Part shown: in pieces, positions 11,904-19,662 of the stretch
How the letters are laid out: the number at the start of each line of letters is the position of its first letter
How positions within the stretch are numbered: position 1 is the stretch's first letter
Source of the DNA: an uncultured Actinomycetes bacterium
GTDB lineage: Bacteria; Actinomycetota; Acidimicrobiia; Spongiisociales; DATADW01
DNA: 64,000 nt
NCBI GenBank assembly: GCA_963824995.1
Contig: CAWGRK010000006.1
Coordinates: 318,273-382,272 of the forward strand
Direction of reading: 5' to 3'
The notes under the pieces: generated by a model
Seen by the model: only the letters and a program-made list of their open reading frames with translations
Databases searched by the model: none
What the model was told of the DNA's origin: nothing
Position numbers and translations under genes: made by a program

Positions 11904-13154
11904 TCACCCCACGTACTGCTCCAGGTCGGAGGGGTCGAACGGGCCGACGGCGCCGATCACCCGCGGGCCGCCCAGGACCTCGGCCGCAACCTCGCGCACC
12001 TCGTCGAGGGTGACGCTCTCTATCCGCTCGATCCGCTCGTCCACCGACAGATGCGGGTTCCCGATCAACTCGTCGCGGCCCAGGCGGGTCATCCTGCTGT
12101 TGGCGTCCTCCAGCGCGATGGCAAGACCGCCCCTCATGTTCCCTTTGGCCCGATCCAGTTCGTCCTGGCTGACCCCCTTGGCCGACATCAGCTCGAGTTC
12201 GCTCAGGATCAACTCCATGGCGGTGGCCACCAGGTCCGGTGTGGTCCCGATGTACACCCCCCAGGCGCCGGTGTCGGCGAAGGGGAGCCGGAAGCTGTAG
12301 ATCGAGTACGCCAGCCCGCGCTCCTCGCGGATCGTCGTGAACAGGCGAGATGAGAGACCACCACCCAGGACATGGTTCATCACCTCGAGGGCGAACCGCC
12401 TCTCGTCCGACCGGGTGAGCCCCTCGCCGCCGATCACGAGGTGGGTCTGCTCGGTTGGCCGGCGCACCACCCGCACACGGCGCTCGACCAGCGGCGACGA
12501 AAGATCGTGTTCGACACCGGGACCGCCCCAGGAGCCGAACAGCGATCCGGCGAGTTCGACCACCTGGTCGTGGTCGATCGATCCCGTCAGGGCGAGCACC
12601 GCCGAATCGACCCGGTAGCGGCGCTTCCAGTAGCCGCTGAGGTCCTGACGGGTCATCGCCCGGATCGACTCCCGCGTGCCGAGAACCGGACGCTCCAGCG
12701 GGTGGCCATCGAACAGGGCGACGGTGAACTCCTCGAAGGCGACGTCCGATGGGTCGTCGTCGTTCATGTTGATCTCTTCGATCACGACCTGGCGCTCAGA
12801 GTCGATCTCCTCGGGCCGGAACGCCGGTCGCTGGAGCATCTCGGCGAGGACGCCGAGACCCTTGGGGAGGTCCTCGTCGAGCAGCCGCGCCCAGAAGCAG
12901 GTGTACTCCTTGGTGGTGAAGGCATTCGACTCGGCGCCCATGGCGTCGAAGGTCTCTGAGATCTGCCGGGCGGTGAGCGTCTCCGACCCCTTGAAGAGGA
13001 GATGCTCGAGGAAGTGCGAGGCGCCCGCCTCGTTGGGGAGCTCGTCCCGGGTCCCGGTATCCACCCAGCACCCAACCGCAACGGAACGCAGCCCTGGGAT
13101 CGCCTCGGTGATCACCCGGAGCCCATTGGGAAGGGTGGTGAGTGCGTAGTGCAT
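11904..13154 (-). CDS. M16 (pitrilysin) family zinc peptidase
   Basis: Inverted zincin motif HFLEH (HxxEH), NAFTTKEYT, GGGLSSRLFTTIREERGLAY. Confidence 0.95.
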   Translation of the reverse strand: MHYALTTLPNGLRVITEAIPGLRSVAVGCWVDTGTRDELPNEAGASHFLEHLLFKGSETLTARQISETFDAMGAESNAFTTKEYTCFWARLLDEDLPKGLGVLAEMLQRPAFRPEEIDSERQVVIEEINMNDDDPSDVAFEEFTVALFDGHPLERPVLGTRESIRAMTRQDLSGYWKRRYRVDSAVLALTGSIDHDQVVELAGSLFGSWGGPGVEHDLSSPLVERRVRVVRRPTEQTHLVIGGEGLTRSDERRFALEVMNHVLGGGLSSRLFTTIREERGLAYSIYSFRLPFADTGAWGVYIGTTPDLVATAMELILSELELMSAKGVSQDELDRAKGNMRGGLAIALEDANSRMTRLGRDELIGNPHLSVDERIERIESVTLDEVREVAAEVLGGPRVIGAVGPFDPSDLEQYVG

Positions 13155-13226
13155 GAGCCGGATGATACGGAGATGCCGGGAACGAGTCGCCGGGCCGTAT
13201 GCCAGGAGGCGGCACTGAGTGAGACA

Positions 13227-15350
13227 ATGGGCGGCTATGCCGTCGGCGACCCGCCCCCTGGACCACCGCTCCAGCACTCACCCAGCTGGTCCGGCCCGAG
13301 GAACGCGCCATCGAGGAGGTGGTGGGCCGCTACCAGCGGGTGGCACCCGCGGTGACCCGGTTCGCCCGCACCCTCTCTGGCAACCCCCAACTGGTGGTCA
13401 GGCTCGGCCCAGAGTCGTCGGCCGGAGCCGACGAGATCGTGTGCGACCCGCGCGTCTTCCAGGCGGCCTACGCGGTGTCGGCACCGGTGACACCCGACGA
13501 GGTGGCTATCGCCTCGGCGCTCCACGAGGTCGTACACCTGGTCGCTACCGACCTCGACGAGCGGCGAGCCGTTCCCGACGTATTCGCCCCCCACGGGGTG
13601 ACCGGGGAGAGCGACCTGATCGGGGTGCTCCGCGCCGCCGGTGGGTCCGCCCTCGAGGCGCTCTTCTTCGCCCTCGAGGACGCCCGCCAGGAGCGGGTCA
13701 ACCTCGCCGTCTATCCGGGAGCCCGCTCGGTGCTGGCCGACATCTATTCGGCGGCATCCCAGGTGCACCTCGGACAGTCACGCCTGCTCGGGCAATTCGC
13801 ACTCGCTTGCTTCCTCATGACCGGGGGCTACGAGGATCGGGATCGCCTGGAGCGCCGCGTCGACGGGCGGGTCGCCGTGGCTTTGGCCGACGCCGGACCG
13901 TACATCGAGCAGGCGGCCGCGGCGGCGGATCCGTGGGAGGTAGCCGTGGCGGCGCTGATGCTGCTCGAAGTGGCAAGCGGATCCACCGCCTCGTCAACCG
14001 AAGGGCAGCCCAGCGGAGACCGTTGCCGAGCGGCGGGACCGTCAGGACAATGACCGGCGCGCCGTCTCCGACGGCCGTGGACCGGGTCAGGCTGACGAGT
14101 CCCAGTGCTGCGCGACTGCCGAGGGATACGAGGAGACCCGGAGGTCGGCCCAGGCGCGGGCGGGCGACGCCCCCCGTCGGGCCGACAGCGAGGTCGCCGG
14201 GCAGGAGGGCATCGACCAGACTACTCAGGGTGAGTCAGGCACCCACGATCTACCTCCCCAACGGGATGCGGGGCAGGCTCCTCGTCACCCCGATACCCGA
14301 CCAGTTCCGTAGCTTCGGCGACCAGGGCAGGGAGGCTCTGGATCGCTTCGCCCGGCGGTGGCAGGTGGCGCAAAGACACGTATCGGGCGAGCTGTATCCG
14401 TTGTTCGTGGCCAACCAGCGCCGCGGGCTGCGCTCGGGGTACGACGCCGGCGATCTCTCGCCGCACGCCGCGCTGTTCATCGGTGCCGGGCTCTACCAGC
14501 GGATCTACGAGCGGAGGGCTCTACCCAACCGGCGCTCGTATGCGGTGAGCCTGCTGGTCGACGCCTCCGCCTCGATGCTCCAGCCCCGCTCGATCGGGGC
14601 AACACCGGCAAGTCGCCATGGGGGATGGCCGCGGCGCTCCTCGGCGCATGGACGCTGGCCAGGCTGTGCGACGAGCTTCAGGTCGAGTTCGAGGTGGCGC
14701 TCTTCAACCGCTCCTTCGCCGCCCGCCGCACCGACACCGAGGCCAGGTACACGGCGAGCCGCTCCCGAGCCACCGCCGGGCTTCGCCAGAGCCAGGGTGC
14801 GGCTGCCGAGCGGCTCATCTCAACCGTGAACCACTACCTGGTGAAGCCGTTCGGGCGCCGCTGGCGCGACGCTGAGGACGTCCTCGCCGGGTTGTTCCGG
14901 ACGGCCGCCGAGCCGGCTGAGGCCGAAATGGAGGCGAAGCGCTACCCCAACTCGAGCCCTCCTGTCTCGATGTTCGAGAAGGCGGCCAACGTCGACGAGT
15001 TCAACGTGATCCACGCCGCCGAGCGGATGGCGCGCACCGGCTCGACGGTCCGGGTGCTGGTGGTGCTCGCCGACGGCATGACACGCGGCTCGGTCGAATC
15101 GCTCGCCGCTGCGGTCAACGGCGTCGAGCACGGTGGCACCACGGTTCTCGGCATCGGGATCGGCGACGCCACCGTCGAAGCCGCCTACCGTCGCAGCGAG
15201 GTGGTCGGCCGGCCGGAGGCGCTCACCAGGGCCATCGTGGACGGCACCAGACAGGCGCTGCGCCGCAGCCTGGCGATGTGGGGGATGGAGGCCTGGTGGC
15301 AGCGCGCCAGCCGCACGCCCGAGCGGGGCCTGCAGACCATCGATCAATGA
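13227..15350 (+). CDS. CobT/NorD-like protein: N-terminal HExxH domain plus C-terminal VWA domain; several frameshifts
   Basis: LHEVVH and FFALEDARQE in 13319-14053; MIDAS LLVDASASM near 14550; NVDEF, VLVVLADG, VLGIGIG near the end. Confidence 0.75.
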
Positions 15351-15360
15351 GAGGAACCCA

Positions 15361-16368
15361 ATGAACGTGACCTTCAACGACCCTGCAGGCGCGGGCAAGC
15401 CAATCACGCTGGAACGATTTCTCGCTGCCAGGCGACCTCGAGGACATCGACCATCGCCACCGCAAGATCCCGACGCAGACCCCCACTACGTCGACCTGGG
15501 GATGCTCTACCGCTTCGCCCGGTTGGAAGAGGTGCGACGTCAGGAACCAGTCCGGGTTCGCCCCACTCCATGTGGCGGTGCGTGGTCACATGGGTACAGG
15601 GAAGGACCACGACATCGAGCAGTTCGCCGCCATGCTCGGCCTCCCCTATTTCCGGATACCGCTGACCGGCGAGGTGCGGGACGTCACCCTCATCGGGTCG
15701 ACCAAGCTCCACGGTGACGGGAAGGGGGGCACCGAGAGTCGGTGGCAGGACGGCGATATCACCAGGGCGCTGCGCGGCCCGGCGCTGGTCAACCTTTCGG
15801 AGCTCAACGCCGCCGGCGCCGAGACGCTGTTCGCCCTCCACGGGCTGCTCGACCGATACGCGGCGCTCGATCTGCCAAACGGGGAAACCGTGCAACTCAG
15901 GGGTGACGTTCGGCTGTTCGGGACGATGAACCCGACCGACCTGCGCGACTATGCCGGGACCCAGACGCTCAACAAGGCGTTCGCCGACCGCTGGGTGATC
16001 TGGGAGAAGGACTTCCCCACCTCGGACGAGATCACATCGATGCTCGAGGTCCGCTATCCGGCGCTGCGCGCCTCCGTTCGTCGAGGCGATCTGCCCGTCT
16101 GGCGGTCGAGGTCAACGCCTCGTTCCGGACGACCGACCAGGGAACGAGGGTGGAGACGCCGATGAGCCTGCGCACCGTGCTCGACCGGGTCCCCGCCGGG
16201 TCTGATGGTCCACGCCGGCGAGACCGACCCACTCCGGCAAGCCTGGGACTCGATGGTCCTACCCCACGTCGACCCATACGATCGCGACCATTACGACACG
16301 GTGTGGAACGCGGTGGTCAGGAAGGGCCCGGCAGGTCCCCCCTTCGAGGGCTGACCCGGTCCGACTAA
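15361..16368 (+). CDS. CbbQ/NorQ/CobS-like (MoxR clade) AAA+ ATPase; frameshifted, end approximate
   Basis: GHMGTGKD (Walker A), WQDGDITRAL, VNLSELN (Walker B), FGTMNP, TLNKAFADRW; SD GAGG upstream of ATG 15361. Confidence 0.85.
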
Positions 16369-16914
16369 CCATCGACCGAGAAGCTCTCGACCAGGCGGTC
16401 GAATGTCGCCTTGATCTCCTCACGGTTCTCTGCGGGGCCGAGCGACTGCAATTGGACCAGTTGGCTGTCGATCAGCATGGCCCGGAGGAATACGACCACA
16501 TCGGTCCCCTCGCTCGTTGCCGCGATCTCGGCGTCGCGCGCCGGGTAGTCGAGCCCCTCGACCGCCTCGTCGGACACGGTGGTGCCACCCAGGTTGGACG
16601 AGGCTCCGTCCACGGCTCCCTGGAGAACGGGGTCGGCTCCCCCGGCGGTGGACTCCTCGGGCAGGTCGTTGACGGCGAACGCCACCGCGCTGTCGTTCTC
16701 CTCGACCAGCCAGGTGTCAACCGAGATCGGCCCGAGCGCGGACGGCGCCTCGAATGTGTCCTGCTCGGGCTCGGCGGGCATCTCCATGGTGAAGCCGGCA
16801 GCCGAGACCGGGACCCAGGTCTCGGTGGCGACGTCTCCTCGAGCAGGCGGCTAGCAAGAGGCCCACCAGCAGCACAGTCCAAGATATTCGACGGTATTCA
16901 GTGGCTTGTCTCAT
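16365..16914 (-). CDS. Hypothetical lipoprotein; frameshifted
   Basis: Signal peptide with lipobox LLLAACS; mature part ends ...FDRLVESFSVDG. Confidence 0.6.
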
Positions 16915-16997
16915 GACCTGACATTGTGTCAGATCACTGAGTGTCGGTCAAAAGTCACCGGGCTGCCGTCGGGCGGGAGACCACTACGGTGGCCCGG

Positions 16998-18089
16998 ATG
17001 CGCCCCTATGAGATGGGGAACCCGGAACTCGACACCAAGATCCGGGAATTGGTCGATGCCGCCGGGGGCGGGGACAACCCCGAGTTGATCCACGAGTTGA
17101 TCGTGACCGCCCTCAAGCTTGCGCGCGATCGCGCCCAGAGGGGCGATCTCAAGCTGCTCAACAGCGCTCTCAAGGAGATGCGGTACTCGATGCTGGTGTT
17201 CTCCCGGCACCAGGACGAGCCGAAGGTGACGTTGTTCGGGTCTGCCCGACTCCCCGCCGAAGACCCCAACTACCAACTGGCGTACCGGTTCGCCAAATTG
17301 ATCACTCAGAAGGGGTGGGACATCATCACCGGCGCCGGTCCCGGGATCATGGAGGCGGGGTCCACGGCGGCGGGATGGAGAACTCCTTCGGGGTGAGCAT
17401 CAGGCTGCCGTTCGAGCCGGCCGCTTCGGGCTCGATCGCTCCGGAGCGTCTCATCAACTTCAAGTACTTCTTCACCCGCAAGCTCGGGTTCGTCAAGGAG
17501 TCCCACGCTTTCGTCCTCATGCCGGGGGGCTTCGGGACACTCGACGAGACCTTCGAGTTGCTCACCCTGATCCAGACCGGCAAGAGCGATCTTCACCCCA
17601 TCGTGATGCTCGAAGCCGAAGGAACCGGCTTCTGGGAGGCCTGGGACCGGCTGATCCGCACCCACCTCGCCGGGCGGGGGATGATCGCCGAACAGGACCT
17701 GATCTCTCTATCGGATCCTCCATGACGCCGATGAGGCCGTCGAGGAGGTGATCCGCTTCTACGCCAATTATCACTCGCAGCGCTACGTCGGCGGACGGCT
17801 GGTGCTCCGCATCGCCACGGCGCCCAACGAGGAGCAATTGGAGAAACTCAACGAAGAGTTCGCCGACATCGTGGTCGAAGGCAAGATCGAGGTCGTCGAG
17901 CCCACCGAGCGGGAGATCGCGGACAACGACGCCATGGACCGTGCCCGGATCGCGTTCGTCTTCGACCGCCGCAGTTACGGGCGGCTGCGCAACCTGATAG
18001 ACGCCCTCAACGACCTGGTCGGACAGCCCGAGGAGCCCATCCACCCACCGCCGGTATTCGGGGAGGAGCAGGCGGAACGACCCTGGTGA
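16998..18089 (+). CDS. LOG/TIGR00730-family nucleotide-binding protein (long form); frameshifted
   Basis: VTLFGSAR, ITGAGPGIMEA, FKYFFTRK, PGGFGTLDETFE. Confidence 0.9.
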
Positions 18090-18151: not shown

Positions 18152-18883
18152 GTGCGTGACATTCTTTCTGATTTGGTCGCGGAGCAACAGGCTCTCGACC
18201 AGTTCCTGCAGCGCGCCCCGATCCGAGACTGGTCGGTGAAGGCCCGGAACAGCACCACGGTCAAGGACCTGGTGGCACACCTGGCCTCCGATGAGGAACT
18301 GGCGCGCGACTCGCTCGACGGCGGGGGCGAGATGCTCGACCGCGCCATCGCCGAAGGTCCGGACCCCGTGCTCGCCGACCGCGCAACCAGAGCCAACGCC
18401 ATGCGTCCCCAGGACGTGATCGAATGGTGGCGCGAGGCGAGGGCAAAGGTCGTTGAGGCGCTCTCGCGCATGGAAGGCGACGAGCAGGTCCCCTGGCTCG
18501 ACGGGCCGGTGGAGGGGCGTCGCATCGCGGCCGATCGCCTCCGTGACACATGGGCCCATGCCCTCGATATCGAAGGGGTGCTCCGCGGCGAGCCCGAGGA
18601 CTCGGCGCGGCTGCGACATGTCGCCTGGATCGGATGGGCCGAGCTTCCCGAGGCCTTCGCTTCCGCCGGTGAGTCCTACGACGGCGAGGTGAGGCTCGAG
18701 GTGATGGGGCCCGGCTACTCGAAGTGGGTTTGGGGCCCGGAAGGTGGCGAGAGCCTCATCAAAGGGCCTGCCGGCGAATGGTGCCGGCTGGTGGTGGGGC
18801 GGATCCCACCGGGCGCGCTGTCGCTCAAGGTCGAGGGAGACCTCGCCGAGGCTGCGGTGCGCGTTCTCGGCAAGCGGCGATGA
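18152..18883 (+). CDS. Maleylpyruvate isomerase family (mycothiol-dependent-type) protein
   Basis: TVKDLVAHLA, DTWAHALDI, RLRHVAWIG, WVWGPE pattern. Confidence 0.8.
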   Translation: MRDILSDLVAEQQALDQFLQRAPIRDWSVKARNSTTVKDLVAHLASDEELARDSLDGGGEMLDRAIAEGPDPVLADRATRANAMRPQDVIEWWREARAKVVEALSRMEGDEQVPWLDGPVEGRRIAADRLRDTWAHALDIEGVLRGEPEDSARLRHVAWIGWAELPEAFASAGESYDGEVRLEVMGPGYSKWVWGPEGGESLIKGPAGEWCRLVVGRIPPGALSLKVEGDLAEAAVRVLGKRR

Positions 18884-19662
18884 CCCTCCCCCGTCTGGTG
18901 GGGATGGTCCACCTCGGACCGCTCCCCGGGGCCCCCCGCTTCGGCGGGTCGCTCCAGACGGTGATCGACCGTGCGCTAGCCGATGCATCCATCCTGGCCG
19001 AGTCCGGCTTTGACGCACTGATCGTGGAGAACTTCGGCGATGAGCCCTTCTTCCCCGATGAGGTCCCCAAGATCACCGTCGCCGCCATGACCCGGGCCGT
19101 GGCCGCGGTGCGCGACGCCGTCCCTTTGCCGGTGGGTGTCAATGTGCTCCGCAACGACGCAATGGCGGCGTTGGCCGTTGCCGCCGCCACCGGCGCCTCA
19201 TTCATCCGGGTCAATATCCTCTCCGGCGCCATGGTCACCGACCAGGGACTGGTACAGGGCCGCGCCGCCGAGGTTGCCAGGGAACGGGTGGCGCTTGGCG
19301 ATGCCGCCGTCTGGGCCGACATCCATGTCAAGCATGCCGTCCCACTCGGCGCAATCTCCTTGGAGGATGCGGCCAGCGACACGTTTCACCGTGGCGGGGC
19401 GGACGTCCTCATCGTCTCCGGCCGAGCCACCGGACAGCCGACATCCACCGACGACATCGCCCGAGTGCACGACGCCGTGCCCGAGGCGCCCGTGGTGGTC
19501 GGGTCGGGTGTGACCGCCGAGACGGTGGCCCGGATCCTCTCAATGGCGGATGGCGTCATCGCCGGCACCGCCCTGAAGCGAGATGGGATCACCACGAGTC
19601 CGGTCGATCCCAAGAGGGCGGCGGAACTCGTCGCGGCCGCCCGGCAACCTACCTCCCCTTGA
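18880..19662 (+). CDS. BtpA/SgcQ family protein
   Basis: GMVHLGPLPGAP, ENFGDEPF, GVNVLRND, ADIHVKH, SGRATG; ATGA overlap with upstream gene. Confidence 0.93.
   Translation: MTLPRLVGMVHLGPLPGAPRFGGSLQTVIDRALADASILAESGFDALIVENFGDEPFFPDEVPKITVAAMTRAVAAVRDAVPLPVGVNVLRNDAMAALAVAAATGASFIRVNILSGAMVTDQGLVQGRAAEVARERVALGDAAVWADIHVKHAVPLGAISLEDAASDTFHRGGADVLIVSGRATGQPTSTDDIARVHDAVPEAPVVVGSGVTAETVARILSMADGVIAGTALKRDGITTSPVDPKRAAELVAAARQPTSP

Follow-up and report, generated by a model that had tools for sequence, protein, structure and literature searches.

A MoxR-class AAA+ ATPase with a reciprocal Asp/Ser exchange at its Mg site in two sister groups of uncultured Acidimicrobiia

We find that a 64,000-nucleotide stretch of DNA from an uncultured member of the Acidimicrobiia (hereafter, the window) encodes a variant of the MoxR-class AAA+ ATPases (AAA_5; CbbQ/NorQ/CobS branch) in which the hydrogen-bonded pair at the Mg site has exchanged its chemistry: Asp stands directly after the Walker A Lys (position K+1), where Thr or Ser is canonical, and Ser precedes the catalytic Walker B Glu, where Asp is canonical. 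This ATPase is CobS/CobT-like, is not a cobaltochelatase subunit, and is conserved in two sister groups of uncultured Acidimicrobiia, among them organisms with genomes of ~1 Mb. The MoxR AAA+/VWA type itself is known; what is new is the reciprocal Asp/Ser exchange at its Mg site. Our working hypothesis, to which we assign a probability of roughly 0.6, is that the protein is an active ring motor that hydrolyses ATP at a rewired Mg site; the motor is predicted to dock the upstream CobT-like protein and likely remodels a conserved client. This hypothesis is supported by the intact Lys/Glu/Asn/Arg/Arg set, strong selection on the gene and its near-universal presence in these two groups.

The ATPase gene lies at 15361..16354 on the forward strand of the window, with start and stop mapped from an intact relative (L004). 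Intact relatives encode a protein of ~330 aa; the window copy is in pieces because of six small indels (near 15417, 15467, 15548, 16067–16072, 16091 and 16197, as compared with two intact relatives of 89–91% DNA identity). The Walker A motif GHMGTGKD occupies the codons 15584..15607 (+), with the Lys at 15602–15604 and the Asp that replaces Thr/Ser encoded by GAC at 15605–15607. The Walker B motif ALVNLSELN spans 15782..15808 (+), its first seven codons (15782–15802) reading ALVNLSE, with an Asn (15791–15793) at a position that is hydrophobic in relatives, the Ser that replaces Asp encoded by TCG at 15797–15799, and the catalytic Glu intact at 15800–15802. A single frame, 15572–16165, holds GKD and LSE together with WQDG, the sensor I motif GTMNP (15920..15934, +; Asn at 15929–15931) and the Arg-finger segment LNKAFADR (15968..15991, +; Arg at 15989–15991), while the sensor II segment TPMSLR (16156..16173, +; Arg at 16171–16173) is read in a different frame owing to the indels. 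A preliminary description of this DNA, made from its letters, had already read both deviant codons and noted that the remaining motifs were intact in the same frame, and it was right on both counts: in an alignment with midasin domains and 26 canonical relatives, D84 falls on the Walker A Thr and S148 on the Asp of hhhhDE (residue numbering follows the intact homologue P0001, L007:5785-6777), and the other catalytic residues are invariant in the clade.

That these features reflect an assembly artefact or a decaying pseudogene is extremely improbable. The six indels in the window copy speak for such an explanation, but the two codons recur in hundreds of assemblies, the frames are intact in close relatives, and dN/dS is ~0.02; for the two codons themselves, an artefact is ruled out by this recurrence in independent assemblies with synonymous variation, as the preliminary description had anticipated when it observed that the visible errors were indels. 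None of the six falls between the two Walker motifs. Because neighbouring genes are broken in the same way, the indels are likely assembly errors: the upstream partner gene has eight further indels, and nearby frames that we take, from their translations, to be dapA, LOG and Lhr-like genes are broken too.

Assignment to the MoxR class is based on profile, fold and motif evidence. Pfam AAA_5 matched with 49.4 bits in the window (cut-off 22; E 6e-13) and with 47.7 bits in the intact homologue. The structural model of P0001 (pLDDT 92) has the AAA+ fold with a helix-2 insert, a pre-sensor-1 hairpin (hairpins at residues 114–132 and 170–180) and a helical lid, and its structural matches to CbbQ (6l1q; Z 24.5, rmsd 2.3, 263 aligned residues) and NorQ (Z 23) were both well above those to other AAA+ proteins. 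The Walker A Lys, Walker B Glu, sensor I Asn, Arg finger and sensor II Arg are all present, as is an adjacent VWA partner with a MIDAS; the Walker A Ser/Thr and Walker B Asp that are canonical for the class are lacking, and these positions are Asp and Ser in 247 of 247 proteins. CbbQ/CbbO and NorQ/NorD (6l1q, 5c3c, 9qh4–9qhg) were the best structural matches of both the ATPase and the partner models; they share 21–26% identity with the clade and differ from it in the Mg-site pair, which is swapped here. No Rubisco or nitric oxide reductase gene was present among the conserved neighbours tested.

The exchanged pair is constant among all relatives that carry it. D84 and S148 were both present in each of 247 distinct clade proteins, in 80/80 GTDB loci (the best 80 of 373, from a search with six seed peptides of which one contained the Asp) and in 120/120 protein clusters among the matches listed (of 1597). 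To avoid motif-based selection, we also used the whole protein to search 201 genomes sampled evenly from the order; one of these (G016) is unpublished, and none of our claims depends on it alone. The gene was found in 191 of the 201, nearly always in single copy, and in 139 of the 141 that are of high quality. Matches to the Walker A GKD pattern were obtained in 186 and to the Walker B SE pattern in 183 of the 201 genomes; the misses among the 191 gene-bearing genomes are contig-end fragments (G060, G115, G147 and G199) or result from changes at neighbouring positions, with D84 and S148 kept. These changes beside the site comprise GQMGTGKD, GHMGCGKD, N146 to Ser (three genomes) and the use of AGC rather than TCN (two genomes). 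Among 130 distinct coding sequences, both Asp codons and all four TCN Ser codons are in use, and the two cases in which the Walker B Ser is encoded by AGC (L219 in G135 and L220 in G189) come from genomes of different families. Because TCN and AGC codons are linked only by a double base change or via a Thr or Cys intermediate, this codon pattern suggests that the Ser148 hydroxyl is under selection.

The preliminary description had proposed that the double change defines a subfamily, and the 247 proteins and strong purifying selection uphold this: for the five closest loci (137 core codons), pN was 0.007–0.010 and pS 0.23–0.33, giving dN/dS ~0.02. K83, E149, N192 and R212 are invariant in 247/247 proteins and R272 in 246/246; E149 is also invariant across the outgroups in our alignments, and the sensor I motif is kept in 247/247 clade proteins and 89/89 relatives. 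Of note, fixation within the clade reaches at least 99.5% in 87 of 145 core columns, which are thus equally frozen, and therefore the invariance of the catalytic residues is not ATPase-specific proof and that of D84 and S148 is not special in itself. Judged from the alignments, what is special is the exchange of chemistry at a known hydrogen-bonded pair in the company of new polar neighbours (N146, D86 and H85) and of a strand-2 Pro for Asn, and by the same measure the change is more than a two-residue swap, for N146 (Ser in a few members), D86, H85 and P102 are clade-specific as well. H85-D86 follow Walker A directly (15608..15613, +) and are present in 247/247 clade proteins, with D86 replacing a hydrophobic residue (L/A/I/V in relatives); P102 belongs to the segment RIPL at the end of strand 2 (15653..15664, +) and stands where relatives have Asn, Gln or Ser, a position that we take to be that of the 'glutamate switch'.

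We also examined how far the gene extends. When 250 further genomes of the class were searched, the protein had strong matches in 72/72 genomes of the same order and in 26/26 genomes of one family with 0.9–1.1 Mb genomes, and the best match in the remaining 152 was no better than E 6.5e-11. All 18 loci fetched from the small genomes encode GKD and LSE, at 55–59% identity. The best match outside the clade in 301 genomes of the phylum (E 8e-27) has the canonical GKT/LEE, and among 1.84 billion representatives the members, at 55–90% identity, are followed by midasin-type proteins at ~30% and one protein at 39%. A search of the ESM Atlas gave AAA_5 clusters only, and a search of sequencing runs, covering contigs only, returned only relatives at 5–10% of words. 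The gene is frozen at its catalytic sites from GC-rich genomes of 3–5 Mb to AT-rich genomes of 1 Mb. Fused or longer forms of the ATPase were sought as well; the one match is a frameshifted read-through (weak evidence). No close canonical paralogue was found in gene-bearing genomes, where the other AAA_5 proteins are distant (29–35% identity or no match). As a separate observation, the ~1 Mb genomes have a second MoxR and VWA pair, with canonical GKT and DE (L204:4802-6974), beside genes that are presumably proAB- and nadD-like, as read off their translations.

The nearest relatives outside the clade all have GK[T/S] with Asp, Glu or Asn preceding the Walker B Glu. Position K+1 is Thr or Ser in 88/88 aligned canonical relatives; for P0193 and the 54 proteins found with it, K+1 is Thr in 54 (one is a fragment) and the Walker B position is Asp in 48 and Glu in 7; and at viral loci K+1 is Thr or Ser in 34/34, with DE at Walker B in 33 and NE in one. 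We looked for intermediates in several ways. None of 55 outgroup proteins, 34 viral loci and 413 midasin-type domains (those scored out of 1073 hits) combined Asp at K+1 with a retained Walker B Asp. In metagenomes, a scan for the clade Walker A with a K+1 codon starting in A, C or T gave no matches, and a scan for the clade Walker B with a codon starting in C or G gave two, both in an unrelated membrane-transporter-like frame; both scans used exact patterns and had no positive control in that collection, although many JGI members are listed by the protein-cluster search. Close homologues were likewise inspected for GKT/S with LDE, a check proposed in the preliminary description; the clade members all have GKD/LSE and no single revertant was found. 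Among the canonical-Thr relatives, P0274–P0280 and L165 have Glu-Glu at Walker B and lack the sensor II Arg, and L165 also has an upstream VWA gene.

In a tree of 60 rows from a quick search, the 22 rows with D/S make up one side of a single branch (SH-aLRT 100) with a stem of 2.86 substitutions per site. Each of the two changes amounts to two base substitutions, and a path via Asn at K+1 and Ala at Walker B would be plausible. Based on 89 canonical relatives, which include near-duplicates, 9 of the 30 columns that are at least 80% conserved changed on the stem (T84D, G142P, D148S, H182R, K203Q, F213W, E226I, R253N and T271L), K83, E149, N151, N192 and R212 did not, and 14 of the 19 columns that are at least 90% conserved were kept, including all hydrolysis residues. 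Because both changes fall on one stem branch without intermediates, their perfect co-occurrence represents one event rather than covariation. The expectation that GKD and LSE would co-occur and co-vary is, therefore, borne out in its first part (247/247) and not in its second, and the description of the swap as 'compensatory' is not supported by the data, both changes lying on one long branch on which so many conserved columns changed.

The same branch gives some room for an account, improbable in our view, in which the two changes are uncoupled and of separate origin, with N146, D86, E88, E106 and D109 compensating for them much as the relocated Asp of MglA does. The length of the stem and the 9/30 changed columns would fit such an account, as would the several new invariant polar residues near the site and the dNMP kinases, in which Asp at K+1 varies freely without a change at Walker B. 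Specifically, the T4 dNMP kinase (1DEK) has Asp at K+1 (GVKRSGKD), and in an alignment of its family K+1 is Asp in 5/8 relatives and the Walker B Asp is kept in 8/8; because that Asp is retained, this precedent is not a swap. Uncoupled changes are nevertheless harder to reconcile with an exchange of chemistry exactly at the known hydrogen-bonded pair, with the lack of any examined AAA domain that has Asp at K+1 and keeps the Walker B Asp, and with metagenome scans that gave no single revertants.

The K+1 Ser/Thr of canonical P-loop NTPases binds Mg as a direct ligand and is hydrogen-bonded to the Walker B Asp, as also stated in the preliminary description; in the available part of their paper, Kozlova et al. 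(PMC9599734) identify this pair as the only strictly conserved proton-carrying residues, propose that it forms a universal catalytic module or proton relay, and report that replacement of either residue abolishes activity. The same part of PMC9599734 gives as exceptions NMP kinases (Gly at K+1), torsinA and DnaC (Asn at K+1; natural non-Ser/Thr proteins that are very weak ATPases), Glu for Asp, and MglA, in which the Walker B Asp is Thr, an Asp has moved to the next strand and function is retained (supplement Fig. S6C, as far as available). Thus, torsinA, DnaC, MglA and the T4 dNMP kinase demonstrate that either residue is replaceable in working proteins, yet none of these deviant P-loop proteins, or of the exceptions in the available part of PMC9599734, represents an AAA+ motor with a reciprocal Asp/Ser exchange. 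We found no description of a GKD/LSE active site in the literature covered, which included two texts on these lineages and left most subscription journals and bioRxiv supplements outside. In DnaC, the five positions equivalent to K83, E149, N192, R212 and R272 are each required for ATPase activity, according to the accessible part of PMC8213410, and CobS needs its Walker B Glu, according to that of a preprint (10.64898/2026.07.21.739949).

How might the rewired Mg site of an active motor work? In the arrangement that we propose, the Asp84 carboxylate would step in for the lost Thr as the direct ligand of Mg, and the Ser148 hydroxyl, together with Asn146, would hydrogen-bond Asp84 or a Mg-bound water, such that one carboxylate and one hydroxyl are kept and charge is conserved; this Asp–Mg–Ser geometry is deduced from the sequences. 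Glu149 would activate the attacking water, and Arg212 of the neighbouring subunit would trigger hydrolysis. By analogy to CobST and NorQD, a hexamer could turn a VWA 'finger' in its pore and pass force via the MIDAS to the client, and the HExxH domain of the partner could putatively hold zinc or cut the client. What counts against this active reading is, besides the statement of Kozlova et al. on the loss of either residue and the weak activity described for torsinA and DnaC, that the swap is one evolutionary event and that E226, R253, T271 and the strand-2 Asn changed as well.

We also considered that the protein is a nucleotide-gated switch or scaffold for its VWA partner that binds ATP and hydrolyses it very slowly or not at all, as torsinA and DnaC do. 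We regard this as unlikely, while granting it more weight than the uncoupled changes described above. The argument that the Ser/Thr–Asp pair is the catalytic module, and the very low activity of AAA+ proteins with Asn at K+1 (both from the available part of PMC9599734), favour a switch, and so do the additional losses of the strand-2 Asn, lid Arg253 and Glu226 and the lack of a close canonical paralogue in the same genomes. By contrast, the elements that count more in hydrolysis than in binding (catalytic Glu, sensor I, Arg finger, sensor II) are frozen, and DnaC itself hydrolyses ATP once stimulated (PMC8213410, in the part available).

Marginally less probable even than uncoupled changes would be a changed chemistry, i.e. 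direct binding of Mn or Ca by the carboxylate, a different nucleotide, or, in place of hydrolysis, transfer of the phosphoryl group to an anionic acceptor. Loss of the K+1 Ser/Thr is typical of nucleotide monophosphate kinases, which act on an anionic nucleophile (PMC9599734, available part), the T4 dNMP kinase has Asp at K+1, and H85, D86 and lid residues differ from those of relatives; on the other hand, the site retains its water-activating Glu and trans Arg finger, an acceptor-binding domain is lacking, and the partner conforms to the usual motor–adaptor build.

The partner of this motor would be the CobT-like protein encoded at 13219..15350 (+; start approximate), which has an N-terminal HExxH domain, a linker and a C-terminal VWA domain and is also in pieces in the window because of indels. 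In 89 of 100 loci, the partner gene is intact and directly upstream of the ATPase gene, and it mostly overlaps the ATPase start. Its zincin-type metal motif HEVVH lies at 13523..13537 (+), and HExxH is present in 92/92 covering matches; the MIDAS motif DxSxS (LVDASASM, 14554..14577, +) is present in 96/96 covering matches, and further MIDAS positions lie in AANVDE (14982–14999) and VLADGMT (15063–15083), both on the forward strand. The best PDB hit of the partner profile is CobT (9uka; E 1.6e-5) and its VWA fold resembles that of NorD (9qh8; Z 18.1, rmsd 3.7, 207 aligned); in whole-protein fold searches the lists were filled by the VWA domain. Downstream of HExxH, [LIVT]ED[AG]RQE occurs in 74/92 matches and xHSxxE in the 18 small-genome loci, with the last Glu invariant. 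This segment (LEDARQE, window 13673–13693, +; xHSxxE in small genomes, L139:6273-8225) putatively holds a third zinc ligand, and a comparison of the two forms suggests that the ligand has shifted from Glu to His, by one residue, in small genomes.

As a test of the association between the two proteins, we modelled their complex. The model reached an ipSAE of 0.79 as compared with 0.00 for the best control, the partner pLDDT was 75 or higher, and no less than 98% of contacts agreed between runs; this mark was reached by 116/157 solved and 2/215 mismatched pairs in a calibration that is roughly applicable here. In the predicted interface, residues 310–322 of the ATPase lid contact residues 19–30, 72–80 and 133–140 of the partner. 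The lid of the ATPase is, thus, predicted to dock the N-terminal domain of the partner, and the C-terminal lid helix DHYDTVWNAVVR (16286..16321, +), in which several residues are invariant, is the predicted docking surface. The contact between the CobS small domain and the CobT N-domain, as far as described in the available parts of the CobST preprints, resembles this lid-to-N-domain interface, and the outcome of the modelling may reflect likeness to solved CobST.

The likeness to CobS and CobT has clear limits. The ATPase matches the sequence of CobS (PDB 9ujv, 9uka) with E 7e-14, but it scores 55.4 bits against TIGR01650, for which the cut-off is 558.55 bits, and CobS has a canonical Walker A and D141-E142 (10.64898/2026.07.21.739949 and 10.64898/2026.10.09.757910, available parts) where the clade has GKD/LSE. 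The partner shares with CobT the N-terminal domain, the linker and a VWA domain with Asn at the MIDAS Thr position; its HExxH is invariant, whereas the word HExxH is absent from the available parts of both CobST preprints, in which the CobT N-domain is said to resemble peptidase M48C. A search for CobN (PF02514) in 101 genomes of the order, of which 100 are of high quality, and in five small genomes gave no match, with a control matching in 5/14, and therefore the client is not a cobalt chelatase. A role in cobalamin synthesis or as a cobaltochelatase is ruled out by the count of 0/106 for CobN together with the TIGR01650 score far below cut-off.

A second known type with the same two-gene architecture is found in phages. 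For jumbo phages, a MoxR/CobS-like ATPase and a vWA co-chaperone fused to a metallopeptidase have been described (PMC7824862, available part); both genes of our pair match phage 'CobS/CobT-like' families (PHROG 249, 5298 and 17276), with a zincin motif in the partner. Viral contigs are among the nearest relatives of the ATPase (29–39% identity), but all 34 keep Thr/Ser at K+1, and the clade gene differs from the phage type in being chromosomal and single-copy in a stable neighbourhood (dapB, M16 peptidase, TIGR03084-like gene and BtpA).

A GKD/LSE pair in an AAA+ protein under strong selection provides a natural test of the role of the Ser/Thr–Asp pair. If the enzyme proves highly active, the requirement of the site would be for one carboxylate plus one hydroxyl, whichever residue supplies which, and the Walker B Glu would be sufficient as base; if its activity is low, the relay model is supported and a switch-type MoxR is added to the class. 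We also entertain, as a tentative and rather doubtful extension of the active reading, that the protein is a fully active motor whose Mg is held by the Walker A Asp without Ser/Thr or a Walker B Asp, and that, together with the zinc-protease/VWA partner that it drives, it forms a two-gene machine for ATP-dependent proteolysis or metal insertion that meets a housekeeping need even in ~1 Mb genomes. Such a motor would, if real, disprove the proposed universal Ser/Thr–Asp proton relay. The gene pair is also a candidate housekeeping machine in two sister lineages.

The genes around the pair provide leads to a client. In the small-genome loci, the gene order is ftsK, dapA, dapB, VWA, AAA+, as in the main order. 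A TIGR03084-like metal-binding protein, which scores below the family cut-off, is encoded at 18152–18883 (+) in the window and is near the ATPase gene in 44/44 long and 18/18 small-genome loci; it is a candidate client. A BtpA/SgcQ-family gene (18895–19644, +) lies a few kb downstream of the ATPase gene in most genomes, being near it in 39/44 long and 18/18 small-genome loci, and has a similar range within the class (60/72 genomes in the order, 26/26 small genomes, and 1/152 others with a strong hit). Because one inherited block explains the shared range, both neighbours are leads only. BtpA as an obligate client is ruled out by its absence from 12 of the 72 ATPase-bearing genomes of the order. 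A long LOG/SLOG-family gene, in pieces at 16941–18089 (+), was rejected as a partner: it is near the ATPase gene in 41/44 long loci and 0/18 small-genome loci. Finally, an M16-family peptidase gene (11904–13277, −) is divergent from the VWA gene in 44/44 long loci and absent from the 18 small-genome loci; an acidic frame of 140 aa (16365–16787, −), with no Pfam or NCBIfam match, converges on the ATPase gene; and tandem dynamin-like GTPase genes follow the ATPase gene directly in 6/44 long loci (e.g. L007:6777-10054, −).
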